Below are positions 1 to 63,399 of a DNA stretch of 64,000 bases, piece after piece (positions within the stretch are counted from its first letter, which is position 1; every line of letters begins with the position of its first letter). The translations under genes and the position numbers were made by a program. The notes under the pieces were generated by a model. That model did not search any database and was not told where the DNA came from. It was given only the letters and a program-made list of their open reading frames with translations. The DNA is from Psammoneis japonica (Eukaryota). Location of the stretch: positions 62,001-126,000 of the forward strand of contig QPGO01000106.1 in NCBI GenBank assembly GCA_008632985.1, in the 5' to 3' direction.

Positions 1-3000
1 TGGGCACAGGCAGAATCCCACAGGTTGTTGCAGTCAGCACTTCATTGTGAATTGCTGATGACTCCATTTGACAAAACATTCAAAATGGCCCTTTGTGTCT
101 TGTCATTCCATTGCCTGGCCATGCGCGCACCTGCCACGCAAAGACTTTGAGGATTTTATGATGCCTTCTTTTTGCTGCAGCACAACAACGCTTCATGTTT
201 GTGCCCTTTGCACAAGCCCTTGCAATGACTGAAGGCGCGGTTCCAATTGCAACATTGTCACACCACTGCAGCCGCATCTCTGCTGCAGCAGATGGAAAGC
301 AGTCGCACAGCACAGCACAGCACAGCAGTTGGTTGTGAGTGCCTGCCGCAGCCCCGTTTGTTGTCCAACGGTCATCCAAAAATCGACATCCACCAACACC
401 CATCACCTCACAATTTCGAATTTGAGTCAGATCGAACTATCCATTTGTTTTGGTTTGAACGAACAATGAAGCTCTCCTCTTTCAAGACTCTGTTTGACGG
501 GCTCCAGTCCTGGGCGGGACTTTTTGTGACATTGGGCCCGCAGAATTCTACGTGCGAGCTCCGCATTGCGGGAATTTAACCAATGGATGTTTTTGTCTTC
601 AACATCAAACAAACGACCAAGTTTGTGGTGCAATTGTGACCATTGCCACTTGGTGTTTTTGCAAACACGCCTGCCCTGCGCCATTCTTAAGACATTTGCG
701 AATGGCGCAGAAGAAAAAAATGTCAAAAGTTGTTGGACGGATCGCTCAACAAGTGTGCCACAAAATGATGCAAAATTTCACAAAAGTCATGTGCCTTTCT
801 GCGTGCGCAACATGCGGTGCGATCCAAAAAACTGTCGATGTTGCAGTTCAGCAGCACGAGGTCCCACCCAGAGCTGGAACGCGTCATTCACCTTGCTCAG
901 TGCGGTTGCTTTCGCACAGGCCAATGGTGAGCAGACTTCTTTTGATCCCTTGTGCGCGTTCCCAACCCATGGCTGCGGCAGCCACGGTGACTTGTGATGA
1001 CCCATCATGTGGCTCATGCACTTGTGTGGATTCTTTCTTGCATGCCATGGAGATCCTGATGAGTGCTCCAGTGGTCCAAGATGCCCCATTGCCCGCGGCA
1101 ACTCCTGCAGGCGCGGCAGCTCCTGCAGAGGCAGTGGAAGCTCCTCCGGAGGCCGTGGAATGTCAGACGGCAGGCACCAAAGTCATGAGCGCTGGTGGCG
1201 GCAGCCCAGAAGGGATTGAGGAAGGAGCAGGAAAAACAAAGGGTGCTCGGGACAAGCCAGCCAAAAAGGCGGAAAAGAAGGGCGGCAAAGAGGAGAGAAA
1301 AAAGAAGAAGGCCGTCAAGAAAACCATCAAGAAGGCAGTCAAGAAGGCTGTCGCAAAGGTTGCCAAAGTGGCACCCACCACAACAGATGCTGCTGCCAAG
1401 AGGACAGAATGAAAGGAGCATCGCAAAGAACGCAGGAAGTGCAAAAGGTTGGGCTGCACCAAAGCAAGCACCGACGAGGCTTGCATTGCATGCAATCTCA
1501 AATGCTTGAACCGCCAGCTGTCTGTGTTCACAGAGAACAGCGTCTCTAAAAGCACAAAGCTGTGAAAATCTTGTCACAATGAAGTGTGATGAGTGGACTC
1601 ACTCCTGCACCAGCTGGAGCATCAACTCCAGCCTTTCCTTTGTAACTCGAGATGTTCAAGACATGCAGAGGAAAACTGCGGTCTCTCACACAGTTCAGCT
1701 GGACAATTTCAATGATTGCTGCGAGGCAGGCTCGAATTGCCAGTTCGCTGCGGTGACTGCACTCCTTCGAGTTGAGATCAATTGTGTTCTCTTCTCTCGA
1801 AACTGGGGCTGCGGCAGTGGGCTCGACTGCACTTGCTGCTGGGAGGAGCTGAGGCAGCATTTTGTTTGCTGCCCTGTTCAGTTGCACATGTCATCCCTGC
1901 TGACGCTGCGTGCCCAATGGAAACAACTTTGCACGTTGGGAACAACATTGCATTGTGCTCTTCTGTGGCGAACTCTCCACACAAACAAATCGCACGGTGC
2001 GGTCCGTTGTTGAGACAGGTTGCGGTGTTGGACGCTTTCATGTCAAGCGCTGCTTGTTTTGACAGCTCACCACAATGCAAATGAATGGTCAATGACAATG
2101 TTGCTGATTCTTCTTTTTGGCTTCAATTTTGCAGAACCGCTCAAGGTTTGCGGCCACTCAGCCCCCCCCCCCCCATGACTTGCTGTCCCCGGCTTTGTCG
2201 ACCCACCAAAGCCGGCAACCTGGTTGGTTCCCATTGTCATCAAGCACAGCACAATGGTTCCTTCTTGAATGGGAAAGGCCCCACCAATGCTTTGGATGCT
2301 GTTGTGGCTCTGACTCACATGAAACTGTCACTCGGAAAATGCAAAGGAATCCTTTTCCAAAATGCACATGCGATCAATGAGAGAAGTCGTTGGAAGGTTG
2401 TCAATGCAAAAGTTGTTCCATGAAAACTGTTCTTCGAGTGACTTTGGTTTGTTTTTTGGACAATCAAGCAGCCCCTGGCAAAAAGATGAAGCATTCAACT
2501 TTAGAAGTTTGGCCAGCTCCATCTTGTGGCGCAGTGCCCTGGAGGGTTCAAAGGACTTGTTCTTGGCACGGGCACAGGGTGAAATTCCATCCAGCCCTTT
2601 GCGGCGACAGCTCACATGTCGATTGAGCAAAACATTGCACGAGCACTCTTCCATGCCTTTGGGGCTTGTGTTGCCACTGGCCTTGAGAGCCGCAAATGCG
2701 TCAATCTCGTCTCGTGACAAGTTGAGATCAGCACCTGGAGCGGCGTTTAGACACAATTCAGTCATGTCTTTGGCGTGCGGCTCCAGCCTTGACTTTTTAA
2801 ACTCCTTGAGCAATGCTTGCATGATGGATCCAAACAACATTGGGGTTGGATCAATTTGCTTCTTGTCAGATGATGACACGAACGAGTCATGAAAGTCTTG
2901 AATCGGCTCCTTGACAAGGCAGGCAAATCGAGCGCCAAATCTCGGTTCTGTCGAATGTTTGCCGCACAATCTCGCCGTCGCGGACCTTTTGGATTTCCTT

Positions 3001-3230
3001 GTTGGCAAAGCCCACCAATTTTAGAAGAGCTTTTGCCCGAGAAATTGTTGATGTCCCAACAGCACCCTTGTTGCGGGCGCGACGATGATTGCCTTGGTGT
3101 TTTTGTGGGTTGCTGCTGTTTGGTGACCGGGTTGTTGTTTCACCAGCCACTTGAGCATTGTTTGTTGTGCATCTTCACAAGAAGACTCTACATGCTGTCT
3201 TTGATGATGCCAGAATTGTCAACAATCCTG
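1..3230. other. TpA-depleted, hypermutated domain with unidentifiable decayed coding remnants (e.g. 2328..3008 minus; Lys/Ala-rich stretch 1200..1410 plus)
   Basis: TA dinucleotides are rare, and ORFs in all frames are Cys/His-rich and almost Tyr-free. Normal composition returns at about 3230-3330. Confidence 0.75.
496..885. mobile_element. MITE family A (GACGCGTTCCAG-type TIR), eroded copy
   Basis: Reverse-complement homologue of 46210..46598 over its whole length. Ends are GACGGGCTCCAG...CTGGAACGCGTC. Flanks GTTT/ATTC fit an ATTT target duplication after TA editing. Confidence 0.85.
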
Positions 3231-3506
3231 AGATGCTAGTTGTTGACACAGAGTGCATTGGATTCTGCCTCAAATCTGAGCGTCGAAGATGGAAGATGCT
3301 GTGGATCGTTTAGATAGATCATCGGATCATGAATAAATATTTATATTTAAAATTTGCCGCCAACACGAACGCGCGAGCCATGATCAAATTTTCAATTTGA
3401 GACGCGCGTTCAGTGTATTTTCAATTTATTACATTCGGGTATTGGAAGAGTTGTTTGTTGACGGCTTTAGTTGAAGAGATCTGACCAACAAAAAGGGGGA
3501 AATGCC

Positions 3507-7196: not shown

Positions 7197-7796
7197 ATGA
7201 AATTCATTAGATTCGTTGACATTCTTGCTCTGCTTGTCGCTTCTCTATCTTGGGCTTCAGCCTCAACGGCGAACCTTTGGTTACATGACGACAAGCCGGC
7301 CGACGACAATGTAGCAGCTCCTGAAACAACGACGGAAGTAGTTCATGTCGAAAGCGCTGTAAATCAGCAGCAGCAGGTATGTTTCTCTCTCTCTCTCTTT
7401 TAATAGTGTTGTAAAAAGCATCAGTTCTATACACGCATTCGCCATCTTGTTATTGCTGACCCGTTTCCCTCGTTTGGTGATGCTCAGCGCGAGTTAGGAG
7501 GAGGAGGACGCGGTCGTGGTGGCCGTGGTCGTGGTCGTGGTGGAAGGGGCCGAGGTCTACGAGAGAGGCAGCTTCGCAGTCAGGCAGTAGGCGACCGAGA
7601 CGAGTTAAGCGGGCGCGGTCGCGGTGGTCGTGGTCGTGGACGTGGTCGTGGTCGTGGTGGACGCGGTGGAAGGGGCGGAGGAGGAGAGAGGCAGCTTCGT
7701 GGTGGCAGCATCATGGGATACGAGGACGTTGTGGTTGTGGAGACCGAGGCGGTCCCCGGGAAGGACGTGGATGCTTCCATTAATGCTTTTAGTTAG
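7197..7796 (+). CDS. Secreted Gly/Arg-rich repeat protein with RXL motifs; exons 7197-7376, 7488-7796
   Basis: Signal peptide MKFIRFVDILALLVASLSWASA. GT-AG intron 7377-7487. Exon 2 reads REL-GGGGRGRGGRGRGRGGRGRGLRE-RQL-RSQAVGDRDEL-SGRGRGG...GGGGE-RQL-RGGSIMGYEDV...AFS*. Confidence 0.75.
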
Positions 7797-9759: not shown

Positions 9760-10029
9760 ATTGCTGTGTTATTATTTCAACCACGAGTAGATAAGCAACC
9801 AACTTTTAGCAGCAACAGCAACAACCGACAACAAGAAGCGAGAGGAGTCGTTATTTTGTGGACGTTCAACGTGATGGCCGTGATGGATGGCTGACGCGGT
9901 CATTCGGCGGCAAGTTTGCGCGCGAAAAAATGTGTCAAAAATCTGACGTCACTGCCAGATCGGCCGTGTCAAGTTTTTTGGTCGCGGATGATCTTTTGTG
10001 TCGTGCTTCAACTATGGAAAGCCCGCTTG

Positions 10030-11760
10030 TTGTACAGTGAGATGTTTGCTCCTCGTTGAAAACTGCCACTTGTCTCTTTTTTCAATGGCCACTCAACTTT
10101 CAAGAATAATCATGCTGCACATCATGTTCTCATAAAATGTGCTCTTTGCTGATTTGTTGCCCAACTTCTTCTTCCGTTTTCTTCAGTGCTGGGGCTTTTG
10201 TGCGCACCTGCCAGCCAGCGCCCAACTTGTGCGAGAGCACCGGCACAAATCCACATGAGAGCCTGTTGCAGTGCATGGCAAAGATGGGACAAACTCAGGA
10301 GCACCATTTTTAAAGCTTCAAGCAGGGCAGGGCTTGAAGAGGGGGGCAAGCAAGATGTGAGAGAGATGAGGGAGCACAGGAACTTTTGCCAATGGAGAAC
10401 AAAAAAAAAACACTTTGTCAAAAAGAGCACTCTTGCAAGGTGGTCATCAAGATCACAGTTTGGCAACCTTGGTGGTGCATGCTGTCCTGCTGTGCTGTGG
10501 TCTGGGCACTGGAGCAAGAGCAGAGCAGTGTGCCTCTCCAAAAAAACACACTCAAATGTGTGTGCAGGCTCCTCCATCACACACCCCATGGTTGGCTGAC
10601 ACTGAAGAACATTTTTTCCAGTGACTGGCCTCTTGGCAATGTGCAATGTGACACTTGAATGGAACAATGATGACTCTCTCAGAGCTGCACAAAACATTGC
10701 GTTTGTGCTGGAGCATCTTTGATGATTGAGTGCTCAGAACGTTTTGTCTTTTCTCTTGGGCGCTCAATTGAAAAAGTCAACTGACACAACAACAACAACA
10801 ACAACAACAACCTGCCAGCAGGCCATCCTCCACAACTGTTTTGCTCTCACGTTCTTTTGCCATGCTTGCCAACCGATGAGACGCTGCCGTTGAATGCTCC
10901 GTGCTTGTGCCCCTCGACAGTTGATGGACAATTGGTGGTTTGTTGTTTGTTTGTTGCACATGTTCTCTTCTGTCAAACTTTTCTCTCCTCTCTTCATGCC
11001 TCTTTGACATGTTTTTTTTTGTTGGCAACTGGAGACTGCTCACTGGGGGGGGGGGGGGGTGACAGCCGACCGAGTTGTGAGTCACGAGTCATGCGCACCT
11101 GTGACGTGGTTCACAGCTGCACACCCAGAAGACAGACATTGGAACAAATGGGTTGCAGAGGATCTCATTGGATCTCTCTTCCACTCACTTTCTTTCTGAC
11201 TGGCACTGTGTTGTCATCACTGTCCCAGCACGTGTCAGATTGTGCAGGCAAACCCTCTGTCTGTCACTTGGAGGAGGAGACGAGACGAGCACACAAGCAA
11301 AACAACAAGGGCAGCAAGTGGTGTGGCAGCAGAAAACTCCATCCAGGACCTTTCATCTTTGGGCATGTGTCAATGGAAAATGAAAAAAAAGCTGGTCCTC
11401 AAAATCAGTTTGGCAAAACCTTGGCATGCTGCCCTGCTGCTTTGCAAAGTGCGGTGCTTGAGGAGCAAGAGAGCCCCCCTCCCAAAAAAAAAAAAAACAC
11501 TCAAAAACGTGTGCAGGCGTTGCAAGGGCTGGCTCTTTTGTTCATGTTGGAGTTTCCTGCATCGCATGTTGTCACAAAAAAACACACTCAAACATGTGCA
11601 GGCGTTGCAAGGGCTGGCTCTTTTGTTCATGTTAGAGTTTCCTGCATCGCATGTTGTCACGGTTGGTTCACACTGAAGAACATTGTCTGTTCTCCTTGGC
11701 ATCAATCTCGGCAATGCGCCACGCGAAACTCGAACGGAACGTCATTGTGTGCAGGTGCTG
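10030..11760. repeat. TpA-depleted repetitive block with an internal duplication (~10330-10700 vs ~11290-11760) and a ~85-bp tandem pair (11490-11660)
   Basis: Shared strings GGTTGG(C/T)T(G/C)ACACTGAAGAACATT and AAAACAC(AC)TCAAA. GTGCAGGCGTTGCAAGGGCTGGCTCTTTTGTTCATGTT occurs twice in tandem. Confidence 0.7.
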
Positions 11761-12169
11761 TAGAATGTCTCTAACAATTTTGATTGTTCGGAGCAGTTTG
11801 TCTCATGCCTTGGATGCTTAATTGAAAAGTCTTGTGACATTTGTCAATGCTGCAATGACCTGCTGGTGGGTCATCCCCCACAATTTCAATTGTTTTCTCT
11901 GCTCTCACACATTGTTTCGCATTTTGCGCTTCGCATTTGCACCAACAATCAAGAATGCAATGGTTGGAGGCGACACACAAAAAACAAAACGATTGAGCAT
12001 GCTCTTTTTTAAAGATCGAAAACTCTTGCTTGGTGTGGTCCTGTCCACGTCATTTTCTCAGGGCCATGTTTTTCGAGGAAATGGCGCAAGTCCAAAAAAC
12101 GAGGGTGGTGTCCACAACATAGATGCAAACGCTGCCCGCAACGTCTTGTCGCGAAAAACAGAGCTCACA

Positions 12170-12536
12170 TGCACTGTGCTCGAAGAACGAGTGTAAACGA
12201 AAGTAGAACAGTGTACGAAAAGTGGAAATTATGAGATTAAATTTTGCTCTGTGATTTTTGGTTTCTCCGAACGAGTTCTCAATGGCCCAAAGCTTCTGTG
12301 CTGCTTCTACAGACAAAAGGCCTTTCGGAGAATATGTTCGTGACAACAGATTGTCCGGATGCGATTGCCATTGACACGCAAGATGTCAACATCGTCAATC
12401 GATCGTATTTGCAATTCTCGACATCCGATCAACTCTGTGTGATCGTTCTGTCCTTTGTGCGCATCCACGACTGTGGTGCGATTGACGTGCAAACAATGTG
12501 CAATCACAAACATGTGTGCAACAGTCGCACACTGCA
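12170..12536 (-). repeat. 3' LTR of the Gypsy element
   Basis: Direct repeat of 16494-16860, TGCAC...CTGCA, adjacent to the PPT. Confidence 0.95.
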
Positions 12537-15500
12537 TTTGCCTCCCTAATTGCACATTAGAGTCATTTGCAAGTGGATTGTTCGACGGACATCGACAGTG
12601 TCAACAATGTCTCCACTTTCACTGCATTGTGCCATTGGCAATGACTGTTGTTGTTTTGTACAGGCAACATGGGGCCGCTCCAATTTCCGAATGTCTTTTG
12701 AGAGTGACATTGTTTGTTTCTCACTTAATGTGCACATGTGCAGTGTTGCGTCGAGCATTCTCATTGACGTTCTTGTTGACATGAACACAAGGACTAATTG
12801 TCCTGGAGCAAGTGTTTTTCCTGACATCGATTGCACATGGCATCGTGCCCAGTGCTTAATGTGCGCTCTTAATTGTGGCGTTCACTTGCTTGCTTGTGGA
12901 TTTCATGTGGTTTGGCGGGCTTGCTTTGTGTGCCATGTTGCTCTGCTGCACTGCCACGTTTCACAAGCAACAACAAACGATGGTCAAAGACATTGTGACC
13001 ATTTCGTCTTGATGGTCAATCCTGTGATGGTTATGAATTCCATCATGGATTTTTTTTGTACTTCAACCATCTATCAGTTGGATTTTAATCGTCATTTGGA
13101 CGTTTCTTTCTGACATGCCGGTGTCATTTTGTCATTCCGAAGGCACTGGTTTCGTGCACCAAGTGGACAAATGTCCATTTTTCTTTTCTTTTTCTAGATC
13201 TTTGGCACATCTCGTGTGTCGACATGATGCACATTTTAATGTCTTGCCTCGTACATTGTACAATGCAACCGTACGGGTGTTGTGAGATTGTCTTTTGCCA
13301 GTGTGAAGTGGATGCGTATAATGTACACCAATCTGTCACTGTTTTTTCCTAAATCGTCCTTTAAAAAAAGGCGATTTTATCCTTGTGACATGAGCGTTCG
13401 TATGATATGTCGCGTCCGACAATTTGGAGGGAATGTCTTTATCCCGTTTTAACGGTAGGACATTGTCGTAGGATTCAATTTTCTATAGTAAGTCGGCTGA
13501 TCGCGTCTATCGCGACGATGTTCGCCTTGCCCTCGTTGTATTCTAATTTGGGACTGAAGTTGTCAACGTATGACTTTGTCCGTTGTGTCTTATGATCCGT
13601 ATATGTATAAATCTGTTGGCCAAACAGTATATTTCGGAATTTTATAAGTGTTTTCACTATGGACAGAAGTTCTTTTTTCCGTTGTAACGTATAATATTGA
13701 AATCCGTGTATGATAACAATATAGTTTTTGATTTGATACGCTCCATATTTTCGGAGACTTTTCGTTCCGTACTTGTACTTTTGCCGTTTGACCTTTATTG
13801 AGGTGAATTTGGCTAGTATTGTACAGGAGATCGTTGAGACTACATGTCTCGATAATAGTAACGTATGACAACGAGATGTCGTAGTGTTCTTTACGTTTTT
13901 CTCGTGTTGCGATTGCTTGAATCGCCTCCATTTTCTTTGTAATCGATTGCATGTCGTTACGTATGGAAGTCTTGATAGTTTATTTCAAGTTAAATAGTGA
14001 AGGACTTTTGTTGTTAACCTTCTAAGCGACTGTTCTAGTCGTTTGAATGCCGTATTAAGCTGTTACTTGTACAGGTGATATTTTGAAGTTACTTTTGTCA
14101 GGCACAAACGATCACATATAGTCGTTCTGACAACTTCAAACCTGTTATGAGTTCACTCAAGTGTTGTATAAAAATATCTGGGGCTCTATAGATTCTCATT
14201 GGAAGTCCATAGTACTCATTTTCTCCCCACGGCATGATTTTCGTGTGAGCACGACGTGTGCTTTTTTTATTTGACATGGTGGCATTCCATGTTTGAATCA
14301 AATAGATTACATATATGAAACGTTCTTGCTTCAATGGTATTTCCTGAATATTGGGTAAAGGACACACCACCTGTATGAACCTTATACTAAGCTTCTGAGT
14401 GTCGGATGCGGTCGAACTCGACCTGTTTTCTTTAGACAATGAGTCTCAGAGCGACTTGTTCAGAGTAATTTCATTCTTAAGACTTCAATCTTTCATAATA
14501 GGTCAAACTCCTTTTGATTGGACGCCTCCAAAGACCATGATAGGAGAAGGTTCTCACGCGTTGTGGAATCGCGTCAGATTTTCCACGATGAGATCCACTG
14601 ATGCTTCCCACACATTCGTCTGAGGAACTTTTCAAAACGATTTCAACCTCTTAAGAAGAAGATTGAGTTGGTTGTGTTCATTTGGGTTAGATGCATCGCC
14701 GTAGTTGTCACTTGATTAAGATCGATGGCGTGATGATGTGAGTCGAGGACCATTGGTTCCGTCATTAAACTCTATTCACGGCGTCATGTTTTTCAATGTG
14801 ATCGGTTTTCAGCTTGAAAACATCGGCATCGAAGAGTGTATGAACATTCTTCATAAGGTAATTGCTTCTTCCCATTAGATTTCTGCATTTGCGTAGTCCA
14901 ATGTGACTTGCAGGACTGGACATTAAGTCGCGTCCCATGATCATGTCATTTGAACCTGAAGAAAATTTGGTGTTTTCAACATGTGCTGTTTGAATGTCAG
15001 CATGCCTTAAATTTCGCATGGTGAGAACTGAATTCGGTGTTTACTGTCAGTCGTAAAGAGCTCACCCTTGGTTTCCCAAGTTTTTGGTGGCGGATTCTTG
15101 TGTTCTCAACTTTCGCACGAATTTGCGCAAAATTGTGGTTGACGATGTTCCGTTGTCGACAGGAACACGCAGATGCTTTTTTCTCTCCTTTCCCAAGGAA
15201 GTGTTCACATAAATGATGACTCCTGGACTGGTGTGAATCATTTCTGCCTTTTTTCTAGGCTTCCTAACATCCAGCAAAGCAAATGATTCGTGAATGGACC
15301 CAAATTGTTCTTCGGATTCACTCTGGATCATCCGATCAAATTGGCAGTTTTCTTCACTGAGGGTGTCAGAATCTGTTTCTTTGCCCTCACGCTCTTTTTC
15401 TTTGTTCGAGGAACTCGCTTTGAGCATTTTTTGAACCGCCTGATCAACCATGACGTTCATCTCTTTTTTTGCGAGCGGCATTTTCGTCATCGCGACGCGA

Positions 15501-16493
15501 CCGCGTGCGATTGCCATTTGAACGGCGCATTTTTGGGTCTCTTTCAGAGTCACCCTTGCACTCTTTTGCCAGTTCATTTTTAGAATGGCTTCAATCCGTG
15601 ATGTGGGTGTTCTTTTTTCAAAGATGAGACCTTGCACTCACTTTGGATTGTTCTGGCACCATGTGGGAGACCATTTTTGGAACCAAATTTGGAACCTTTT
15701 TTATTTTGGAACCAACTGCGCTGTCAGAGCCTGAGTTGATGTGTTTTTTCGTCACGGACGTCATGAACGACCTTTGGATGACTCAAAACTTAATCAGCTC
15801 ATCAAGGATGAGTTGCAACAGTTGATTGTTTTGGACAGTAGACTGATGCTGCCATCCTTGCGGTGCGAGTGACAGCTGATAAATCAGCGCTCGGTTTCCC
15901 GCTAGATTCGACTTAGAATCCATCTGAGGGTTGCATGGACTCTCATCATTGACCTCTTGGGTCTAACAGAGGCTTTCTTGCTGTCAAGCAGCTCTGGTTT
16001 CTTCAGATCGTCTTGAAAATAACAACTCTGTTTCTGAAGTGCAATTCTTGGAAAGACATGAGACATGAGACTCTTGAGGCACTTTCCAACGGTTCCATCT
16101 TGCTCTTGGACTCGAGGCTCGTTGATTCGGTCTCCAAAAACTCTCCAACAGTCTCTCCTTGCATGCCAGACGCATTTCTCGGACCTGATCGACTCGGAAC
16201 TTGCATTCTCTGCAACCATGACTTGGTGTAGATTTTTTGACAATGCGGTGCACTTGAGAGCCCTTGATCCTTGGGTGCTTGGAATGGACCGCATTAAAGC
16301 GAATCCTCTTGTCTGGCAGACGAAAAACAGCGTTCCATCTTGAGGCACTGCTCGGCTTGAGCTTCTTCCGCTCGGAAATCGATTCCAGCAGAACTGATGC
16401 GATTCGTTCCTGTTTATAGAAGAATTTGCAAAGGCACATTAGTTAAAATTTTCATTTTCCGTGCTTTTTACCTTCTGTGGTGTGCACACACAA

Positions 16494-16860
16494 TGCACTG
16501 TGCTCGAAGAACGAGTGCAAACGAAAGTAGAACAGTGTGCGAAAAGTGGAAATTATGAGATTAAATTTTGCTCTGTGATTTTTGGTTTCTCCGAACGAGT
16601 TCTCAATGGCCCAAAGCTTCTGCACTGCTTCTACAGACAAAAGGCCTTTCGGAGAACACATTCGTGACAACAGATTGTCCGGATGCGATTGCTGTTGACA
16701 CGTGAGATGTCAACATCGTCAATCGATCGCATTTGCAATTCTCGACATCCGATCAACTCTGTGTGATCGTTCTGTCCTTTGCACGCATCCACGACTGTGG
16801 TGCGATTGACACACAAATAACATGTAATCATAAATGTGTGTGTGACAGTCGCGTGCTGCA
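16494..16860 (-). repeat. 5' LTR of the Gypsy element
   Basis: Direct repeat of 12170-12536. Confidence 0.95.
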
Positions 16861-17776
16861 CACAATGCCTCATCAGAAAGGTCATCGGGCCTTGGCTGAG
16901 GTTGATGATTGGACCCAAATGGGAGAGAACCTTGCTCAAGGAAAACACGTGTCCCTTTCAAGAAATGGTGACACCGTGGCGGTTGGTTCAGACACAATGG
17001 TTCATGTTTGTCAGTGGCATGATGCGTCATGGCATCAACTGGGAAATGCCTTTGGAACGAACGCAGTTTCCATGGCAATGTCGAATGATGGGAGGCGGGT
17101 TGCGACAGGCACCAGCTGCGACACGGTCAGAATTTTTGAGTGGACGGGAAGGAAATGGAGAAGGATGGGAGGCAAAATCAAAGGCGTTGGTAAATTTGAT
17201 GATTTTGGGAAATATGTTGGCTTGTCAGAAACTGGCCATCGTGTTGCGATCGGTGCACCATGGGCTTCCGGAGCCAACGATGGCAACCGGGCGGGACAAG
17301 CCAGCGTTTGTGAGTGGAATGGATCTTCGTGGGTTCAACTGGGCGAGTTTGTTGATGGAGAAAGTGACTATGACGAATCTGGAGCACTGTCCATTTCAGC
17401 AGATGGTCACATTGTTGCCATTGGAGCAAGTCGTGCGGATGGAGAGGAAGAAGAAGATGTTGACGTGGGCCACGTCCGTGTTTGTGAATGGGATGGGTCA
17501 GAATGGAAACAAAGAGGAAGGGATGTCGATGGTTTTAAAGCAACAGACGAGAAGTACGGCTTTGATGCAAGCACCGGATTCGGTGACGCTGTGGCCTTGT
17601 CTGGCGACGGTCAACGACTTGCTGTCGGACTTCGAGACCGTCCCCGGCAAAGATGTGATGTTTTGTACGACAGTGTTGGTCAATTCAACGTCTATGAGTG
17701 GGATGGGACCGACTGGCAAAGAACTAGCACAGTTCCATTCCCCGAAATAGAAGAAGACGTTTACTTTGGCACATCT

Positions 17777-18084
17777 AAGACTGGCCACATAAAAAGGTGC
17801 TAACGGAGCTCGAAATAGCTCGAATGGTCGATTTTCAGGTATGGACACCGATCGAAAGCTCTCGTCGAGTTCTTTTTATCCATGTATTCGATGTTTATCA
17901 ATTCCTATTTCCTAATGAATGGAGGCCGGTAAAACATTTCAACGGTCAAAATAATTTGTTATAAAATATATATGTACATTAAGAATAATTATTTATCATA
18001 CGATTGCGTTCTGCGCGCTTTTTCTCAATAAATATTTTGGGAGCTCGAGAGCGCCCGTTAGCACCTTTTTATGTGGCCAGTCTT
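17777..18084. mobile_element. MITE family B, 308 bp, AT-rich and un-eroded
   Basis: ~30-bp TIR AAGACTGGCCACATAAAAAGGTGCTAACGG / CCGTTAGCACCTTTTTATGTGGCCAGTCTT flanked by an ATCT direct repeat. Interrupts the propeller ORF. Confidence 0.92.
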
Positions 18085-18723
18085 ATCTTTGTGTCGACGT
18101 CTTATGACGGGCAGAAAGTTGCAGCTGGGTCTATAGAAAAGGATCGATATGGTGGATCTTATGGACACGTTTTCGTGTACGACGTACGAAATAGAGACGA
18201 AACTCCAATCGGAAGTGTTATTGATGGTGAAGCTCCCAAGGACAACTCATATTACCAATCGCTGTCTGGAAATGGCAATGTACTTGCGGTTGGTGGTGAT
18301 GGATCGGTTCGTGTGTTTACCTTTGGGAGAGAATATGAAGTGTCGAATGAGCCATTTATTGATGTCCTACCATGGAAGAAGGTCAACAATATCAAGGTTG
18401 CCAAGAAGAAGAAAGTAGATGTTGCCATTCTTGGGAGCTTTGCGTTCCACACGCGAGACATTGACGTGAAATCGATTCGTTTTGGTCCTGGTAAAGCTTC
18501 GACAATTCGAGGTCGGCGTTTCAGGGATCCTAATTCCGATGGATACAAGGACATGCTTCTCCAGTTCAATATGACTGAATCTGGTCTTGGACCAACAGAC
18601 AAAGAGGCATGCCTTACTTTCCAGACGTATGCTGGTAAAACATTCAGCCGATGCGATTCCGTTCTGATCTCCGAGTAACATGGCTTTTGTTCAGCACAGT
18701 GCTACATTAACATTAAACACAAT

Positions 18724-20613: not shown

Positions 20614-20946
20614 AATTTTCACCGCGATTGTTTTTAAATGAGGCCACGTTGGACTCTCTGAAAAGACTGCTTGAGGCAACAACAGGGCTATAATGCACCA
20701 ACGACGACGATCATAGGACGACGAGTGCGACTGTGATGAGTGCACACATGTGTTTTGGAGAAGGCCCAAGCCCATCATCAAACACGCATCATCGCCAACT
20801 AGTATTCGATCATTAATTTTTATCCGTGCCCGAAGGAAAATCATACTGATGTGTTGGAGGGAGTTCGCACTTGCCGTCCGTCCGCACACCCTTCACCCCG
20901 ATTCTACGAGCATCCTCCGTCCTCCTGATGTCTCGGATCAGCTGTG

Positions 20947-22500
20947 AGTCCAGCCGACGATCTACACAAGGGTGCCGAGTGCAGTGTACCGTCAATGAGA
21001 GGAGAAAGCAACAAGAAGAATGGCGGTGAATGATGATGAGGCCGCTGGCAACAAGGCCAATGAACGTTTCCCCGGCGTGCGTTGAACTGGAGACTTGGTC
21101 CGGAGGAGAGCCGCAGCGATTTCTCTGTCGAGGTTGTTTGTGAGAACGCGGATGATGGAGAAGAAACGAGTGACCCACACCACGTCCATAAGATCATTTT
21201 GGAGTTTGGGGAGAAAAGCAGCGGATGTTTTGAAGGTCTCTTTGCAAGCGCTGCTGCGGAAGCGCCAAGCAACAAGGTCCAAGATTCGATTTCATCCTTT
21301 GGCAGCCAAGGCCTTTTCCCTGCTCCTGGATCACATCCACAATTTAGATGAACCTGAGTTGATGCCCAGAAACTCCACTGCACACTGTCATCTGGCAGAC
21401 TGTCTTGAAGTTGACAGTCTCTGGTCAAAAGCGCTTGAGTTCTGGGAGCGGATCCACTTGTGGCCGACGTCGAAGATTTGGCAACATGCTGTGACAACAT
21501 TGAACATCTTCCCACTGACTCTCCTTTGTTGGAAGGCTGGGACATGCAGTTCTGGGTCAACGTTCAATCCCACATGAAGAAAAGCACTGTTGGGGCTCAT
21601 CGTTGCCATCACTCATTGATTGCCGAGCTCTGCATGAGACACAAGAATGAACTGGACACTGAGACATTCTCAAAACTGGTTGAATCTGTTGGCAGTTGCT
21701 TGTGGCTGCAGTTTCATGCTTCCCTGAAGTTGCTCAAGGTCAAAAAGGCTGTCTTGCCAGTGGCAGTGATGGGACAGTCCCATCAACCAGACTGCATGAA
21801 TGCTGCATCAAGTCCTTGGCTCTGAAATGGAAACGTTTGATGGACTCAGCTGCCGCGCAAGAATCTCTCAAGAATCTGAGCCCACTTCTCCTCTCAGAAG
21901 TCCTGAAAGCATCACTCCCCCCTCACAGGAGCTGGAATTTCTTCTGTCAATGGCGTTTGTGTGTGCGCTGATGTCTTCTGTGAGAATGATCCCACACATT
22001 GCATGGATGGTGAATGGAATCATGTTTGAACAAAATTTGCGATTGCCGAGTTTTCTGGGGGTCATGCGCACAATGGATGTGATGACTGGTGTGTTGCAAT
22101 TGTCAAAAATGAAGAAGACTTTGATGAAACTGACTTCTGCCAAGCTTCCCCATTCATCATTGAAGCTGTTTCTGGGGTTCCCTGGAAAACCGGCTGGCAT
22201 GCAGTTGGGAATGGGATTGATCCAGCTCCAACTCTTTCCCTCAATTTTGAGGGGAACAATGAAAATTGAGCTTTTTCCATTGGATTGTTCCAAGTCACTT
22301 GTTTCACCACCATCTCATTGGGAAATGAATGGCAAAGTTTCTCTTTTTGGGAATGACCAAGGGAAGTGCGCGCAACAATCTGTTTGTTTGGTTTGACACT
22401 TTAAACCAGTCCACTCAGCAGGAGTCCATGATGGGGAGTTTGACTCTCTTGTTCACTGGATTAGAAGCACTCTCTAGAACACACAGACTCCAAAGAAAAA
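20947..22500 (+). pseudogene. Hypermutated inverted duplicate of the BTB gene at 28285-29670, including flanks
   Basis: Collinear homology (LNWRL.PEESRSDFS.EVVCEN, HVHKIILEFGEKSSG, FHPLAAKAF) with frameshifts and Tyr->Cys/His changes. Confidence 0.92.
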
Positions 22501-23860
22501 ATCTCACCAGATTGTGTGGTGTTGGTTGTGAGCAATTGTTTGATGGATTGTGCTTGTTTGGTTGTTCAACACCATGCCGCAGCAGCAGAGCTTTTGCCAG
22601 CTAGAGAGTTTCTGACACAGCTGCTCCCACATCACTCGCGCCATGCTCATTGTGTCACCTCTCATCTTGAACTTCATTCTGACCAAGCTCACACTCATGA
22701 ACATTCTCCTGTGCTTCTTCTGATGCAACAACTGTCTTTGGTGGCTTGCCCTGCTGGCAGAGTGTTTTGCATGCAGTTGTCAACAGCTGGTCTGTGAGGG
22801 ATCACATGCACTGTCAAACACATCTGCGCTCATTGCAACACACAGAAAGGCATGATCAAAGCAGCCTGCAATGGCAAACAAGTGTTGAACAAAACATTCT
22901 GCTCAAGTGACCATGTCCTGCCAAGATCCAATGACTTCAACCTTCTGAGAACATCAGAAAACAAGTTGGAGAAAAGCAATCTCAAGCGGAAATCAGATGG
23001 GTCAAAGGCCATCAGCCAAGACAGCAAACTGGCCGAAACAAAAACCGGGCAGGTGAGCAAGACCAAACATTCAAATGGATGACTTGGTGAAAGCCAAATG
23101 GCAACAAGGAGTTGCCAGGTTGGCTCCTGCTCGATGGCAGTTCTCCAGCACAGAAGATGAAATGTGCGTGGCACGTGTGGGGGTGAGTGCAAAATCTCCA
23201 CCAAACTTCTTTCAGAGCACCTTCTCAAGAACCACACCTGCAGCACCAAACTGGCCCACCATTGGGTGCACCAAAAGCAATGATTCTCATGTGATGGCTT
23301 CCACAAAGTGGGCTGAGAAGTGACAGACAAGGCGGTGGATCAACCAGGACCTGAGCAACACAGGTGGCTTGCCAAGCATGTGACAGGCATCTGCAGAGAG
23401 TGGGCGGGTGGCTCCAACACCACGGGAGACACAGGACCATTCACACTGCCCACACTGCAAGGAGGATGATGAGGATGCTCACCATGCACTGGTGTGCCCT
23501 GAAGCTGCCAGCCACAAAACAAACTGCTGCGCAAATGGGTCTCAGCAAGGCTGCCAGTCACGGAACCAACGACCACTGAGGTGACGATTTCCCATCTCAG
23601 CATCCACCACAGAGGATGAGACAAGCACACCTGAGGACTCTGCCTCCAACTCAAAACAGCTGTGCCAGATTTCAGGTTTTGGACAACCAAAGGCTTTGCT
23701 CGGCAGTGCAGCATCATCCCATGCGAGGGCCCCGCCACGGCAGGCGGACAACTGATGGCGATGCTCCTCGACTCCATGTTGAGTTTGCCTTGTTCAAACA
23801 AATTTCCCTTTTCGGCGCCGGTCTGGAGCATCCTCTCCGGAGTCTTGCACCCAGCCGGCT
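22500..23860. other. TpA-depleted block of unidentified origin
   Basis: Composition only; no recognisable motif. Confidence 0.6.
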
Positions 23861-24027
23861 AAAAGCCCGTAGAGGGCGCAGGCACTTACTAATGATCGTT
23901 GAGTTGATTGATTGTAGTTGGCGTCGTCAGAGAGCACCCAGTTCTACAGCACTTACTTTCATACACACACACACTAATTCTTTTTTCCATGCTACTACAA
24001 AAAGTAATCTCCTACTTAAACTTCTTA

Positions 24028-24755
24028 TTATGACGACTCTTCCTTCTTCTCTTCCTTTTTATCAAAGACACCAAAAATGCCTTCATCTTCTTGCAATTCC
24101 TTTTGTTTTTGTAAATTTTCTTGTCTCAGTAATTCTTGTTCCTCCATGTACTCCTCCGAAAACCACGGCGCCGTCCCCGCCTCGTCCTTGTCGACACCCA
24201 ATCTTTTGGCTTGCCATTGTCCCAAGACACTGGCGGGTGAAATGGGAGACCATCCCCTCACGGTGCCTTGCAGATAGTAATAATCATCAATGGTTCCCGC
24301 CCATATTTTCTTTCCAAACCAACCACCCCACGAATCCTTGGAAATGCAAAAAAATTGCGAGGCGACATCGACACTCCACTTGCCCTCTCTTCGCTCATCA
24401 CCCCACACCGCCACGTTTTGACCGCGTTCATTCACCAACAAACGAACCCATGTTTCTTTAATTTGATTCGGAGACGAATCCCAATTGGTACCAATCAGCC
24501 ATTCACTGCCAATAAAGTCTTGTTCCGTCAATTCATCCATTTCTTCATATTCCCATTCATCATCGTCTTTATCTGTAGCAGTTTCTGTAGAAGTTGCAAC
24601 GCTATTTTCCTCCGTGGTGCTAAACAGACGTGATGACGGATAAGCATCGGCTGCTACTGCGGCATGCGGCAATTGTTGTTGTTGTTGTTGTTGAGACCCA
24701 AGCATTCGTTGCAACAACAACACAAGAGCAACAACAAGGATACAATTCTCATCAT
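24028..24755 (-). CDS. Hypothetical protein, probably plastid-targeted; 5' end frame uncertain
   Basis: Trp-rich globular core (EWLIGTNW..ETWVRL..GKWSVD..WGGWFGKKIWAG..LQGTVRGWSP). Signal/transit-like N-terminus is spread over several frames. Confidence 0.7.
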
Positions 24756-25091
24756 GAATGACATGATTATTGTAATAAAAATCAACGACAAGGTGCTTTA
24801 TGTGTTGTTTTCTCACAATAACATGGTCGCATGCATGTTTTGCTCTTCTGTGTCGTGTGCTTCAACGTGGCGGGAAAAAAGAGGTCATGAGTTGTCCTAC
24901 GTGAAGTTGTGGTAGGTTTCTACTTACGTGCTTGTACATGGAGATTGAGTCGAACTAATCACAGTCTCGTCACGATCGCGCACACATCAACACAACGAGT
25001 CGCGGACAACATGACAACAACAAGCGCAGCAGAGAAAGACACCGCAATGAACTTCTGTTGGTTGTCCAATCACAATCAACTACCTATAACC

Positions 25092-27565
25092 ATGACACGC
25101 CCACAGCAGCAGCAACTCAAAAAGAAAAAGAAGAAAATTACCATCAAACCCTTTTCCAAACCACCGCAATTGCCCGATAATTTTATGTCGAAACGAGTCA
25201 AGAGCTGTTGCAAGCCACCACGCGCATCTATGCGGATGATGCTGCTTCCTCCAAGAAATTAGAATCACCCCAGAATTCCTACACGTCCGTGATTGATTTA
25301 GTCAATCATCAATATGGACCACGTCTTTACAGTGATTTGGTACAGGGTATGAAACAAGCGGCTGAGTGTATTATTACTGTTTCGAAACAACAACACAACA
25401 GCCATAATATCCTACCCCACGTTTATGCACAATATCAACAATACGTGGAATACGTCTTGGTGTGTCGTCATGTCTTTATGGATTTGGATCGAACGCACGT
25501 GTGGTTATCGTCTCAACAAGTAGCTGTCAAGCGAACGACGACTAATCAAAATCAAAACTCCCAGCAGAACAAAAGAATACTACGCAATCGCTATGGCAGG
25601 TTGGATTGGAACAATTCAAGAATCGTTACAAGAATTGGAATTGGATGTGCCGTGGAGAAAGAATTTTGGATGACACTCTGGAACGACTATACGTCATCGT
25701 CGTCGTCTCCTCAAGAACAACAGCAACACAATACCACGTCGCATGATGATTTGTTGCTTCTTTCCCAAATTATAGGCATGTGGCAAGAATTACAGTTACT
25801 GGGAGACGTTTTGAATTCCTTGGGCATTCAACTTCAAAACGCCTTATCGCGTGAATGCATGGATTGGAAAAATAACGGACAGTACTACAATGCCCATGCC
25901 TTTATTCAGCACGTCCATTCCAAATGGATGCGCGTCAGTCAGCAATGGACCTTTTTGCCACGCACGTGGCTCCGGACCTTGCTCGAAGTCAAGCTGCTCG
26001 AACCGCACTTGAATTCCGAGTATTTACTCAAACCACAACACTTTGATGTGTTGCCCCAAGAATCTATAGTCACCTTATGGATGTTGGCGGGACGTCTCGA
26101 CAAGGCCAAACTTGTTGCCAAGGCTATTTGTCTCTCGTACAAGAGCAAGGGATTGGCCATGTGTCAAAATAACAACAACAACAATGCCAACAACAACAAC
26201 ATGATTGCTTCGTTATTAAAACTCCACGCTTCTCAAGTGGAATTGGTTTCCAAACTCCACCACTCCACGTCGGATTTGACACTTGCCTTGAAACAAGTTT
26301 GGGACGAAGTCATGAATACCAGTCCGACCGTGGCGGAACAATTGGCCAAATTTGTCGATGTCTCGTTTCGTCATTATGCCAAATCCAGCATGGATCCCAA
26401 CAAAATTTTACAACTCTTTTGTCACTTACAAGCCAAGGATGTCTTTGAAGCCTTTTACAAGCGTGATTTGGCCAAGCGCCTCTTGTCAAGCAAGGTTACC
26501 AGTATGGATGCCGAAAAAAGCATGGTGACTCTATTAAAGGCAGAATGTGGTGCGGGATATACCTCCAAAATGGAAGGCATGTTTCAAGACGTCGAATGGA
26601 GTCGGGAAACCATGAATCGATACAAGGGGACCTTGCAAGATAAAAAGGCACCAAACTCCTCCAATAATATTGATATGGAAGTACAAGTCTTGACGACGGG
26701 ATAGTGAGTACCATATTATTAAGAGGCTTCTGGAGTATTGCAATTGTATTGTTGTTTTGTACCGTGTCACTCACTCATGTTCCATTTTTCCTTTTGCTCT
26801 CTTTCTACAATATTATACACACAGTTGGCCAGTCTATCCGCAGCATCCCAACTTGGTTTTGCCCCCCGAGCTCAAAGAGTTGCAAGAACACTTTCACGAG
26901 TATTACAAGAATACCTATCAGGGCCGTCGCATGACGTGGCAGTATGCCCTGGGCAATGTCGTACTCAAGGCCAATCTCAACAAGAAGCGATACGATCTGG
27001 TGGTGAGTCTCTTGCAAGCTTTGGTGTTGCTTTGTTTAATTCTGCTGAAGAGAAGGAAAAGTGGACTCTACCGGAAATTCAAAAAGCAATTGGAGTCGAA
27101 GACCGTGGTGATGTCGAGCGTTTGCTTCAATCGCTGTGCATGGGCAAGGACGGCACTCGCGTGTTGCGCAAACACGATTACCAGGAACCGGGTACCAACC
27201 CCTCCAAGAAGAAGATTCGTCAAGCCGTCTTTGATCAAGATGGCTTTTCTTTGAATGAAAGCTTTGAATCGCCTTTACGGCGCATCAAGATTAACAATAT
27301 CGTCTTTAAGGAAACCAAACAAGAACGCGAAAAAGTCGTGCAGGCCGTTTCGAGGGATCGTCTCTACTTGATTGACGCCGTCTTGGTACGCATCCTCAAG
27401 GCACGCAAGACACTCTTACACCAAGAACTCATTCCCCAAGTCTTGGAACAAATCAAGGTTCCTGCGCAACCGTCCGACATTAAGAAGCGAATTGAGAGTC
27501 TGATTGAACGCGAGTATATGGAGCGAGACAAGAATGATCGGAATCGATACAATTATTTGGCGTAA
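25092..27565 (+). CDS. Cullin (CUL4-like), intron 26704-26824, apparent frameshifts near 25190, 25600 and 27030
   Basis: KDVFEAFYKRDLAKRLL, LKAECGAGYTSKMEGMFQD, VLTTGYWP across the intron, IDAVLVRILKARK, DIKKRIESLIEREYMERD...YNYLA. Confidence 0.92.
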
Positions 27566-28284: not shown

Positions 28285-29670
28285 TTAATTTTCATTGTTC
28301 CCCTCAAAATTGAAGGAAAGAGTTGGAGCTGGCTCAGCCCCATCCCGAACTACATGCCAACCGGTTTTCCGGGGGACCCCACAAACAGCTTCATTGAAGA
28401 ATGGTGAAGCTCGGTAGAAGTCAGTTTCATCATAACCAACTTCAGAATCGACAATCGTAATACACCAGTCAAAATGTCCTTCAAACCCCTGGTGAAACCG
28501 GGCAAGTGCAAATTTTGTTCGATAATGATTCCATTCGCCGCACATACAGTACACAGGATCATCCTCATCGAAGTGATCATCACGCGTATAAACACCATTG
28601 ACAGAAGAAATTCCAGCTCCTGCAACGGTGATGCTGGTCGGCAGAGTTGGTTTCATAACTCCGAAGGCCTCATTCTCTTCGAGGGCCTCTTGGAGTGACA
28701 CGTTCAGGACTTCTGAGAGGAGAGGCGGGCTCAAATTTTTGAGAGATTCTTGTGCGGCTGAATCTCCCTTCAAACATTTCCATTCCAAAGCCAAGGACTT
28801 CACGCAGCATTCGTGCAGTCGGGTTGATGGCACTGTCCCATCACTCGCCGCCGGTAGGACGGCTTTTTCGACCTCGAGTAACTTCAGGGAAGCATCAAAC
28901 TGCAGCCGCAAGCAACTGTCGACGGATTCAACTAGTTTTGAGAACGTTTCAATGTCCAGTTGATTCTTGTGTCTCATGCAGAACTCGGCAATCAACGTGT
29001 AATAGCGTTGATGAACCCCGGAACTGCTCTTCTTCATATGGGATTGAACGTCGAGCCAGAACTGCACGTCCGAACCTTCCATCAAAGGAGAGTCTATGGC
29101 AATGTGTTCAACATAACCACAGCATTTCTTCACAACCATTTCTCGCAGTTCCTTGATGCGAAAGGTTGCTGCGTGCTCCAAGCATGTCACCAACTCCTCA
29201 TCGGTGACATCATAGATCCGCTCCCAGAACTTGAGCACTTTCGAGCGGAGACTGTCTACTTCAAGATAGTCTGCCAGATGATAGAGTGCAGCGGAGTTCC
29301 CGGGCATCAACTCAGGTTCATCTAAATCGTAGATGTGATCCAGGAGCAGGGGAAAGGCCTTGGCTGCCAAAGGATGAAATTGAATCTTAGACTTGTTGCT
29401 CAGCGCTTCCGCAGTGGCGCTCGCAAAGAGCCCGTCAAAATACCCGCTGCTCTTCTCCCCAAACTCTAAAATGATCTTATGGACGTGGCACGTGTCACTC
29501 ATCGTTTCCTCTCCATTCGCGTTCTCGCAAACAACCTCAATGGAGAAATCACTGCGGCTCTCCTCCGGATCAAGTCGCCAGTTCAGCGCACGCCGGACGC
29601 GTTTGTTGTTGGCCTTGCTGCCAGCGGCCTCATCATCACCGCCATTCTTCTTGTTGCTTTCTCCTCTCAT
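28285..29670 (-). CDS. BTB/POZ domain protein with a C-terminal ITVAGAG..VNGVY domain
   Basis: SDFSIEV..HVHKIIL..SGYFDGLF..AFPLLLDHIY..LYHLADYLEV is a BTB core. Intact ORF. Confidence 0.88.
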   Translation of the reverse strand: MRGESNKKNGGDDEAAGSKANNKRVRRALNWRLDPEESRSDFSIEVVCENANGEETMSDTCHVHKIILEFGEKSSGYFDGLFASATAEALSNKSKIQFHPLAAKAFPLLLDHIYDLDEPELMPGNSAALYHLADYLEVDSLRSKVLKFWERIYDVTDEELVTCLEHAATFRIKELREMVVKKCCGYVEHIAIDSPLMEGSDVQFWLDVQSHMKKSSSGVHQRYYTLIAEFCMRHKNQLDIETFSKLVESVDSCLRLQFDASLKLLEVEKAVLPAASDGTVPSTRLHECCVKSLALEWKCLKGDSAAQESLKNLSPPLLSEVLNVSLQEALEENEAFGVMKPTLPTSITVAGAGISSVNGVYTRDDHFDEDDPVYCMCGEWNHYRTKFALARFHQGFEGHFDWCITIVDSEVGYDETDFYRASPFFNEAVCGVPRKTGWHVVRDGAEPAPTLSFNFEGNNEN

Positions 29671-29699
29671 TGATGGTGCACTGCGTACACCGCACCCTT

Positions 29700-31650: not shown

Positions 31651-31721
31651 TCTTCTTGCTCTAACTAACTTGGTGGCTCCGAGCGTCATCCAGTGCGACT
31701 CCGGAACAAAGACAGGAACAG

Positions 31722-36930: not shown

Positions 36931-36939
36931 TCAACCTTT

Positions 36940-63109: not shown

Positions 63110-63399
63110 TATAATATATGCTAGAGACAAGCCTGGCTTTTTCTATTGCAACAAGAATTGCAAGACCTCTGAGAAACAACAACAACAACACAACGCCAAC
63201 AACGAACAAAGTTCCAGTCGAAAAAAAAAAGTGAGAAACAACGCGAGAGCGAGCGACGTGGGACGTGGCGTCTGCGTAGACTGTCGTAGAAAACATACTG
63301 CAAGCAAAACTACCGGCAGTGGGGGCGGGGGATGGCATGCAAGACACTATCGTATCGGACCATGGCAGACGACATCAAAAAAGCGCGCGATCGCGATCG

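Follow-up and report, generated by a model that had tools for sequence, protein, structure and literature searches.

Probable TpA-erasing hypermutation of about one third of a 64-kb genomic window, still under way on a young LTR retroelement

A stretch of 64,000 nucleotides from contig QPGO01000106.1 of Psammoneis japonica (positions 62,001 to 126,000 of the forward strand; referred to below as the window) was analyzed, together with a retroelement bounded by long terminal repeats (LTRs) at 12170-16860 of that stretch. A hypermutation process that erases TpA has already cleared about one third of the window and is caught in progress on this young element. TpA is changed to TpG or CpA at the level of DNA, in place and only in certain regions, with the two strands hit about equally and much faster than background substitution; a slower loss of CpG is seen in the same domains once they are old. 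Quite probably, these observations are explained by region-targeted A:T>G:C hypermutation at TpA, acting on the LTR family and on silent DNA of the window.

The two LTRs (12170-12536 and 16494-16860) were aligned with MAFFT, which gave 367 columns free of gaps, and the differences were counted by script. The pair differed at 29 bases, by transitions only and each within a pyrimidine-purine (YR) step. The 29 bases make up 19 steps: seven with TA in one LTR and CA or TG in the other, ten reciprocal (TG vs CA) and two CG vs CA. A sequence-only reading that preceded this work had listed 19 differing sites, all of the YR type and without indels or transversions, divided into the same three classes; alignment and count agreed with it exactly, and the many CpGs that it had described as intact in both LTRs numbered 21. 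Also unchanged in both LTRs were 4 TA, 35 TG and 21 CA steps. Since YR steps cover 200 of the 367 positions, the probability that every difference falls within them is 2e-8 when the 29 bases are counted, or 1e-5 when the 19 events are. Read as A:T>G:C changes on the plus strand, the differences divide into 13 A>G and 16 T>C. Their distribution is uneven, with 11 of the 19 steps in the last 80 columns, and the ratio of observed to expected (o/e) TpA is 0.14-0.20 in columns 159-367 and 0.31-0.45 in columns 1-158, the left LTR being most depleted (0.14) in columns 159-367. Reciprocal sites outnumber single ones because saturation is uneven along the LTR. Strand-coordinated runs of TG and CA outcomes along the LTRs received no support (6 runs among 13 sites and 6 among 15, near expectation).

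The ancestral state at these sites was examined in public reads (runs X1-X3, one sample, probably from the source organism), from which contigs were built of exact 31-mers. In the comparison with other copies of the family 40 of 962 differences were listed, 15 of them in the left LTR, and the site counts that follow refer to the differences listed. At 14 of the 15 left-LTR sites the window has CA or TG and other family copies have TA; at the fifteenth, CG in the window faces CA in the other copy. A single contig from run X2 carries all 15. The copy represented by this contig has TA at five of the ten reciprocal sites (columns 200, 210, 328, 342 and 361), at three sites where the right LTR keeps TA (columns 325, 332 and 338) and at six sites where both LTRs show the same derived step (columns 40, 192, 321, 330, 346 and 348). 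Within the range of the contig, the sites with TA in the copy and a change in both LTRs were five reciprocal and five same, as expected if the hits were independent and the strand was chosen at random. CG at a reciprocal site was found in none of the differences listed.

The 28 differences between the X2 contigs and the window were all transitions (13 C>T, 11 G>A, 1 A>G and 3 T>C), so that C or G in the window faced T or A in the copy in 24 cases and the reverse held in four. At the first of the CG vs CA steps (column 318) A is present in the right LTR, in the X2 copy and in 58% of the depth; at the second (column 360) it is present in the left LTR and in the X2 copy. Both steps look like gains of CpG from CpA by A>G and not like decay of CpG, and with these two counted as gains all 29 differences of the LTR pair can be read as A:T>G:C. 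The sequence-only reading had proposed that ancestral TA was resolved to TG in one LTR and to CA in the other. This gained support from the TA found in the other copy at all five of the reciprocal sites listed, and independent resolution of TA is backed as well by the TA-free, CA/TG-rich domains and by the polarity of paralogs (53:3) described below. Reconstruction at the ten TG/CA sites thus gave TA at the five columns named above, the other five being without a listed difference.

None of the 167 LTR positions outside YR steps differed, so that ordinary divergence between the pair is at most 0.018 (95% upper bound), and at least 27 of 42 TA site-copies (at least 64%) had changed in the LTR pair. 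The resulting ratio to ordinary substitution is greater than about 115; this figure is a lower bound and a ratio of divergences, not a rate per generation. A rate far above background, as the earlier reading had supposed, is therefore upheld. The raw divergence of the pair is 7.9%, with no difference outside YR steps. Because changes at TpA far outpace ordinary substitution, dating of the insertion by LTR divergence is invalid here, which had also been anticipated.

The same footprint was found across the window, which was bimodal when analyzed in 1-kb bins: ten segments, amounting to 23 kb of the 64 kb, are nearly free of TpA, each holding 2-17 TA against 42-328 expected (Table 1). Between TA-poor and gene-bearing DNA the twelve dinucleotides other than TA, CG, CA and TG shift by no more than 0.17 o/e, and the TA and CG that are missing from TA-poor DNA are about equal to the CA and TG in excess. 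Affected DNA has a GC content of 0.48-0.52 and a TA/AT ratio of 0.04-0.3 in 1-kb bins. In 200-bp bins the domain edges are sharp within 200-400 bp, and tens to a few hundred bases separate them from where open reading frames (ORFs) with good Pfam matches end (lipase, BTB, MoaA and others). The TA-normal parts hold kinase/EF-hand, MoaA, cullin, lipase, MatE and TPR_12 genes and are therefore ordinary gene-dense DNA. The named relatives of the MoaA and cullin ORFs are all diatoms but one, at 40-58% identity; the exception, a transcriptome labelled as that of a ciliate, was taken as prey contamination.

Loss of TpA also marks the translations. ORFs in TA-poor DNA contain 0.1% Tyr, as against 2.5% elsewhere, and about twofold more Cys. 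There are 47 ORFs of at least 130 aa, on both strands, in the 23 kb of TA-poor DNA; long overlapping ORFs occur on both strands because TAA and TAG are gone. A spurious ORF of this kind lies at 10785-11771 (+), with 329 aa, 26 Cys and no Tyr. Only two of the 47 matched Pfam, both with host-type domains (ThrE-like and XPG), and no viral genes were recognized among the Pfam-scanned ORFs of the old domains.

The direction of change was determined with five pairs of paralogs, each with one copy in TA-poor and the other in normal DNA. TA in the normal copy corresponded to TG or CA in the TA-poor copy at 53 sites, and the reverse was seen at 3; for CG in the normal copy the counts were 79 and 11. 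The BTB gene at 28285-29790 (-) was also compared with its inverted pseudogene copy at 20983-22266 (+), which is 48% identical to it over 481 aa (tblastn). The pseudogene has 14 stops and no Tyr, against 13 Tyr in the gene; at these 13 positions three Cys and three His are found in the copy, the remainder falling in poorly aligned parts, and Arg>Cys/Trp changes are present as well. Tyr is encoded only by TAY, so that its loss from the copy amounts to TA>TG/CA, accompanied by CG>TG/CA. The first 500 bp or so of the pair (20946-21454 vs 29721-29215) are mutated about symmetrically in both copies. A tblastn search with 19 ORFs of the window against the window returned only the BTB, 37777, 39978 and 45556 paralogs; no decayed lipase copy was found by this search, and a larger inverted duplication was dropped.

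The LTRs end in TG...CA and are flanked on both sides by the same 4-bp word, which fits one insertion. Of the features of an LTR retrotransposon (Ty3/gypsy-like), the terminal ones were found (direct repeats of 367 bp, TG...CA ends and the 4-bp flanking word); of the gag/pol domains only RT_RNaseH was detected, under its curated cut-off (23.6 and 20.9 bits vs 24.8). The second score was obtained when the 3,957-bp interior was scanned against Pfam with stops read through as X, and it was the sole match. Judged by its sequence, the element is a coding-dead LTR element on the minus strand, because it retains only this sub-threshold minus-strand match and has 42-58 stops in each frame. No further LTR copy was found by self-BLAST of the 64-kb window. 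In a public run the k-mer depth was about 50-60 over the flanks, about 10,000 over the interior and about 24,000-27,000 over the LTRs; the family therefore has about 200 copies and more than 400 LTRs (about 450 LTR copies). A metagenome scan for 25 contiguous, unchanged nucleotides of the LTR returned 0 loci.

Along the element and its surroundings the process is centred on the LTRs and extends into the host flanks (Table 1). CpG o/e stays at about 0.8-1.3 across this young zone of flanks and element, as against 0.36 in the older domain at 10108-11771. In the TA-rich core other copies showed 0 differences from the window over 13396-13548 and 5 over 13725-14027, and a contig at 14507-14701, just past the core, showed 2; in the right part of the LTR there were 20 differences per 242 bp. 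The right flank takes in the 5' part of an ORF with beta-propeller repeats: the motif is V-C-[QE]-W in the first three repeat units, which lie in depleted DNA, and V-Y-E-W in the unit that lies in normal DNA. At 17624 and 17655, on the outer edge of the depleted right flank, the window has TG and a contig from run X1 (or another haplotype) has TA; the two forms may be alleles set apart by recent hypermutation. From each LTR the reach seemed longer towards lower coordinates, the downstream direction of an element on the minus strand. This would fit a transcription-linked process, but is only an impression, judged from one element.

Table 1. Positions and composition of the features in the window (o/e, observed/expected).
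Feature	Position or length	Strand	Composition and remarks
TA-poor segments, pooled	23,146 nt		TpA o/e 0.06, CpG 0.44, CA 1.65, TG 1.68
Gene-bearing remainder	35,025 nt		TpA o/e 0.54, CpG 1.00, CA 1.22, TG 1.23
TA-exhausted domain	1-3236		12 TA vs 198 expected; CG 125 vs 206
TA-exhausted domain adjoining the element, older, depleted in CpG too	10108-11771		4 TA vs 109 expected; CpG o/e 0.36
Left flank	11772-12169		TpA o/e 0.13, CpG 0.83; TA-depleted, CpG not (young spill-over)
Target-site duplication, left copy, 4 bp	12166-12169		same 4 letters at 16861-16864
LTR (3' LTR in the sense of the element), 367 bp, TG...CA ends	12170-12536	-	TpA o/e 0.29, CpG 1.20, CA+TG 1.55
Internal region, degenerate LTR element	12537-16493	-	42-58 stops per frame in three-frame translation
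Interior A	12537-13200		TpA o/e 0.25
TA-rich core	13201-14400		TpA o/e 0.87, CpG 1.32, CA+TG 1.13
RT-RNase H remnant	13475-13984	-	PF17917, E 5.9e-5, 23.6 bits, cut-off 24.8
Interior C	14401-15000		TpA o/e 0.36
Interior D	15001-16493		TpA o/e 0.21
LTR (5' LTR in the sense of the element), 367 bp	16494-16860	-	TpA o/e 0.25, CpG 1.19, CA+TG 1.57
Target-site duplication, right copy, 4 bp	16861-16864		matches 12166-12169
Right flank, 5' part of the beta-propeller-repeat ORF	16861-17600		TpA o/e 0.11, CpG 0.83; TA-depleted, CpG not
Beyond the right flank	17601-18700		TpA o/e 0.68, CpG 1.18
TA-exhausted domain with BTB pseudogene copy (20983-22266, +)	20988-23886		8 TA vs 181 expected
TA-exhausted domain	29820-31661		7 TA vs 122 expected
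TA-exhausted domain, two adjoining segments	33082-37458		14 TA vs 272 expected
TA-exhausted domain with decayed duplicates of the 37777-40877 genes	40678-45959		17 TA vs 328 expected
TA-exhausted domain, two adjoining segments	47028-50221		16 TA vs 187 expected
TA-exhausted domain continuing past the end of the window	63349-64000		2 TA vs 42 expected

The course of events proposed here is as follows. Both LTRs would stem from a single young insertion, in a diatom-like genome, of a coding-dead LTR retroelement with a high copy number, and after insertion each LTR would have been hit independently, in place and at the level of DNA. TpA would become TpG by A>G on one strand and CpA by A>G on the other; hits on opposite strands in the two LTRs would leave TG facing CA, and a hit in only one of them would leave TA facing TG or CA. 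The process would exceed the rate of ordinary substitution at least about 100-fold and would be strongest in and beside the LTRs, spilling 0.4-0.7 kb into the host flanks and leaving the 1.2-kb middle of the element unreached. Over time essentially all TpA would be removed, so that older silent stretches (pseudogenes, repeats and DNA that could not be annotated) become TA-free; over half of the CpG in these stretches has likewise passed to TpG/CpA, for which slower deamination of 5-methylcytosine in the same silenced DNA would be the simplest cause. We infer that an enzyme carries out the process as a defence against DNA that is silenced or repeated, and that the loss of CpG in old domains reflects cytosine methylation of the same DNA. 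As to the chemistry, adenine at TpA may be deaminated to inosine, which, by analogy with the proposal made for Bigelowiella natans (below), is judged about as likely as not. No deaminase domain was found among the scanned ORFs of the window by general Pfam scans, a dedicated enzyme search not having been made. GC-biased gene conversion was rejected, the change being specific to TpA and CpG moving the opposite way, and so was selection against TA, which cannot set apart the two LTRs of one young insertion.

The base on which the process acts was weighed from the products. If the thymine of TpA were modified (for example hydroxylated) and then mispaired or were misrepaired to C, the same dinucleotides would result, for T>C and A>G on a palindromic step cannot be separated by sequence, and the nearly equal marking of the strands (13 A>G and 16 T>C on the plus strand) agrees with this as well. 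Nothing here points to such a modification, however; the two CpA>CpG changes (two events only) are simpler as A>G after a pyrimidine, and the authors of the sole described case favour adenine deamination, on indirect grounds, so that a thymine-side route is considered unlikely. An origin on the cytosine side can be given very little weight. It would have the reciprocal sites begin as CpG and decay by deamination of 5-methylcytosine or by C>T changes like those of repeat-induced point mutation (RIP), with TA arising secondarily from CA or TG. CG is, like TA, one step from TG and from CA, and conversion of CpG to TpG/CpA is real in the old silent domains (polarity 79:11, CpG o/e 0.44). Yet in the LTRs 21 CpG are intact in both copies, CpG o/e is 1.2-1.3 and only two steps are CG vs CA, and C>T changes enrich TpA, whereas in affected DNA its o/e is 0.06-0.29. 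Moreover, the other copy has TA, not CG, at all five reciprocal sites among the differences listed, and Cys or His in the pseudogene stands opposite Tyr codons of the intact gene. A RIP-like C>T reading, which predicts TA-rich products, is contradicted on these comparisons by the paralogs, the pseudogene and the other LTR copies.

Two further explanations concern the origin of the differences between the LTRs. They could be an artefact of assembly or base-calling, modified TA or CG having been misread in a strand-specific manner by a long-read base-caller while the LTRs are truly identical. By reasoning only, strand-specific miscalls at palindromic modified sites would yield TG and CA outcomes, and no sequencing platform is on record for the assembly or for runs X1-X3. 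Against this, TA-free single-copy DNA is reproduced in contigs of exact 31-mers at a depth of 30-64, which show 0 differences from the window over 9983-11059 (run X1) and 7 differences over 21874-23831, and their form, many short contigs at even depth, resembles that of accurate short reads. In the TA-free BTB copy ordinary decay is seen as well (14 stops, gaps and numerous transversions), as expected of an old pseudogene; TA, CA and TG occur at the same site among family copies in varying proportions (6 to 65%); and in another alga, whose lines were sequenced by Illumina, this signature has been seen to arise de novo (source cited below). An artefact is accordingly held to be highly improbable. 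Alternatively, the differences could have been imported by ectopic gene conversion or recombination from independently mutated copies, or the element could be a recombinant of two insertions. The roughly 450 LTR copies in the genome, as estimated by depth, the clustering of 11 of 19 differing steps in the last 80 LTR columns and the presence in other copies of joints between LTR ends all speak for import, but the same 4 bp flank both sides, no difference outside YR steps, such as conversion from diverged copies would tend to bring, is seen, and the unique host flanks are depleted in TA too, with a TG/TA polymorphism at the edge, so that mutation in place does occur here. Import is thus improbable, and would weaken only the estimate of rate and not the nature of the process.

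Several points count against region-targeted hypermutation at TpA as proposed here. Runs X1-X3 are possibly the reads of the assembly itself, with no platform on record, so that the check for artefacts is not fully independent. The ancestral state rests on 40 of 962 differences, the partner base being assumed unchanged where none is listed; the totals for X2 (1 A>G and 3 T>C) allow at most 4 of the 15 sites to have been misread, and 5 of the 10 reciprocal sites have no listed difference in other copies. A match of 4-bp flanks is weak evidence in DNA rich in CA and TG, and ectopic gene conversion among the approximately 450 LTR copies could have brought in some of the differences. Targeting was not uniform: 4 TA persist in both LTRs, the TA-rich core is untouched and hits vary in density along the LTR. 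The loss of CpG in old domains, finally, is not a feature of the process in Bigelowiella natans, which is considered next.

In the chlorarachniophyte B. natans, 302 de novo single-nucleotide mutations were reported in 15 mutation-accumulation lines, 231 of them in regions of integrated giant virus and virophage (Mettrop et al., 2026; bioRxiv 10.64898/2026.01.13.699255). The mutations in viral regions are nearly all A>G/T>C, all of those on TpA, and arise some 1000-fold more often than in the rest of the genome, at about 6e-7 per site per generation. The genome holds 124 clusters of 1-kb windows that are depleted in TpA and enriched in CpA+TpG; TpA-depleted coding sequences are enriched in reverse-transcriptase and DDE domains, and an ADAT2-like deaminase was proposed as the candidate enzyme (Mettrop et al., 2026). 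The window resembles B. natans in the near-exclusive change of A>G/T>C on TpA (29 of 29 differences are transitions here, and 17 of 19 steps are TA vs TG/CA or TG vs CA), in confinement to regions at orders of magnitude above background (sharp domain edges and a divergence ratio greater than about 115 here) and in TpA depletion with CpA+TpG enrichment as the long-term footprint. It differs in its host, a diatom-like stramenopile, and in its targets, which are an LTR family, gene duplicates or pseudogenes and unannotatable DNA, with no viral gene recognized. The extent is far greater, 19 of 64 1-kb bins passing the 5% cut-offs of the preprint and TpA o/e being 0.06, against 0.45 for their region of nucleocytoplasmic large DNA virus (NCLDV). 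CpG is also depleted in the old domains here, and an LTR-centred profile with spill-over into host flanks is visible. The B. natans evidence is a measured rate per generation, whereas that of the window is divergence between sequences alone.

RIP in fungi converts C:G to T:A, mainly at CpA, and yields TpA-rich, GC-poor DNA (PMC2621366; PMC7296669). As in the RIP of ascomycetes, repeated or mobile DNA in the window is inactivated irreversibly by dinucleotide-specific transitions on both strands, multi-copy elements and gene duplicates are affected, and the process leaks into unique DNA next to its targets. In chemistry and direction the two are opposed, however, for here TpA is destroyed (o/e 0.06) and GC is kept at 0.48-0.52, and TA-free DNA is found here at single-copy depth (about 55), while the multi-copy LTR family and duplicates are hit as well. 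Decay of CpG by deamination of 5-methylcytosine is matched by the old TA-free domains, where CpG passes to TpG/CpA (79:11, o/e 0.44), but not by the LTR pair, with its 21 intact CpG and o/e of 1.2, and CpG decay cannot remove TpA. The editing of cDNA by APOBEC and of RNA by ADAR likewise causes hypermutation of retroelements by base deamination with a preference for neighbouring bases; editing before integration leaves the LTRs alike and one strand marked, whereas here the LTRs differ, both strands are hit, and flanks and pseudogenes are affected. TpA hypermutation in diatoms was reported nowhere in the literature searched, a search that left most subscription journals and the bioRxiv supplements outside.

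Other features were noted within the TA-free domains. Direct repeats at 34000-34225 and 35929-36157 lie 1.93 kb from each other and are 88% alike. They show 20 transitions at YR steps, 2 transitions elsewhere and 3 transversions, with 7 reciprocal TG/CA steps; they may be the LTRs of an older small element. An EXO1/XPG-like ORF (XPG_N, XPG_I) with one Tyr lies at 44369-45340 (+) and may be either a surviving working gene or a decaying copy; its use as a test for Tyr>His/Cys changes was abandoned, as the alignment to solved EXO1/FEN1 chains was too distant to inform. A weak ThrE-like (threonine/serine exporter) remnant is present at 1166-1573 (-) in the first of these domains, and a tandem array of 32-nt units (7 overlapping copies of 144 nt, 63-78% alike) at 36590-36956. 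The old TA-free flank of the element contains an 85-nt tandem duplication (11491-11660, 94% alike), one difference of which is CG vs CA. In normal DNA, repeated coding-like units rich in Gly and Arg (CGTGGT-type) were seen at 7490-7700, and ORFs for a protein kinase and EF-hands stand in a row at 51189-54006 (-), probably an intron-split gene of the calcium-dependent kinase type.

Within the literature searched, TpA-specific hypermutation has so far been described in one 2026 preprint, for one chlorarachniophyte. The window offers a second and much stronger case, in a diatom-like stramenopile, so that the process is not peculiar to one species; retrotransposons and pseudogenes are seen to be its targets, and its spatial profile is seen to be LTR-centred, spilling into a neighbouring gene. 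There are practical consequences: LTR-divergence dating fails in this genome, RIP indices and models of CpG decay would misread TA-poor regions, and spurious ORFs without Tyr in TA-free DNA can mislead gene callers. A search for the enzyme by comparison is now enabled, among genes common to both hosts and absent from relatives without TA-free domains, and an enzyme that turns A:T to G:C at TpA in chromosomal DNA would interest work on base editing. More tentatively, and somewhat short of what we would call probable, diatoms or this lineage may possess a genome-scale defence by adenine editing of DNA, nucleated by chromatin or transposons, that erases TpA from every silenced stretch, starting at LTRs, spreading over 0.4-2 kb and rewriting Tyr codons of adjacent host genes to Cys or His, and that shares its origin with the Bigelowiella process. 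If that shared origin is true, this would be an old defence of the SAR (Stramenopila, Alveolata and Rhizaria) group, and a natural adenine base editor of double-stranded DNA with specificity for TpA.

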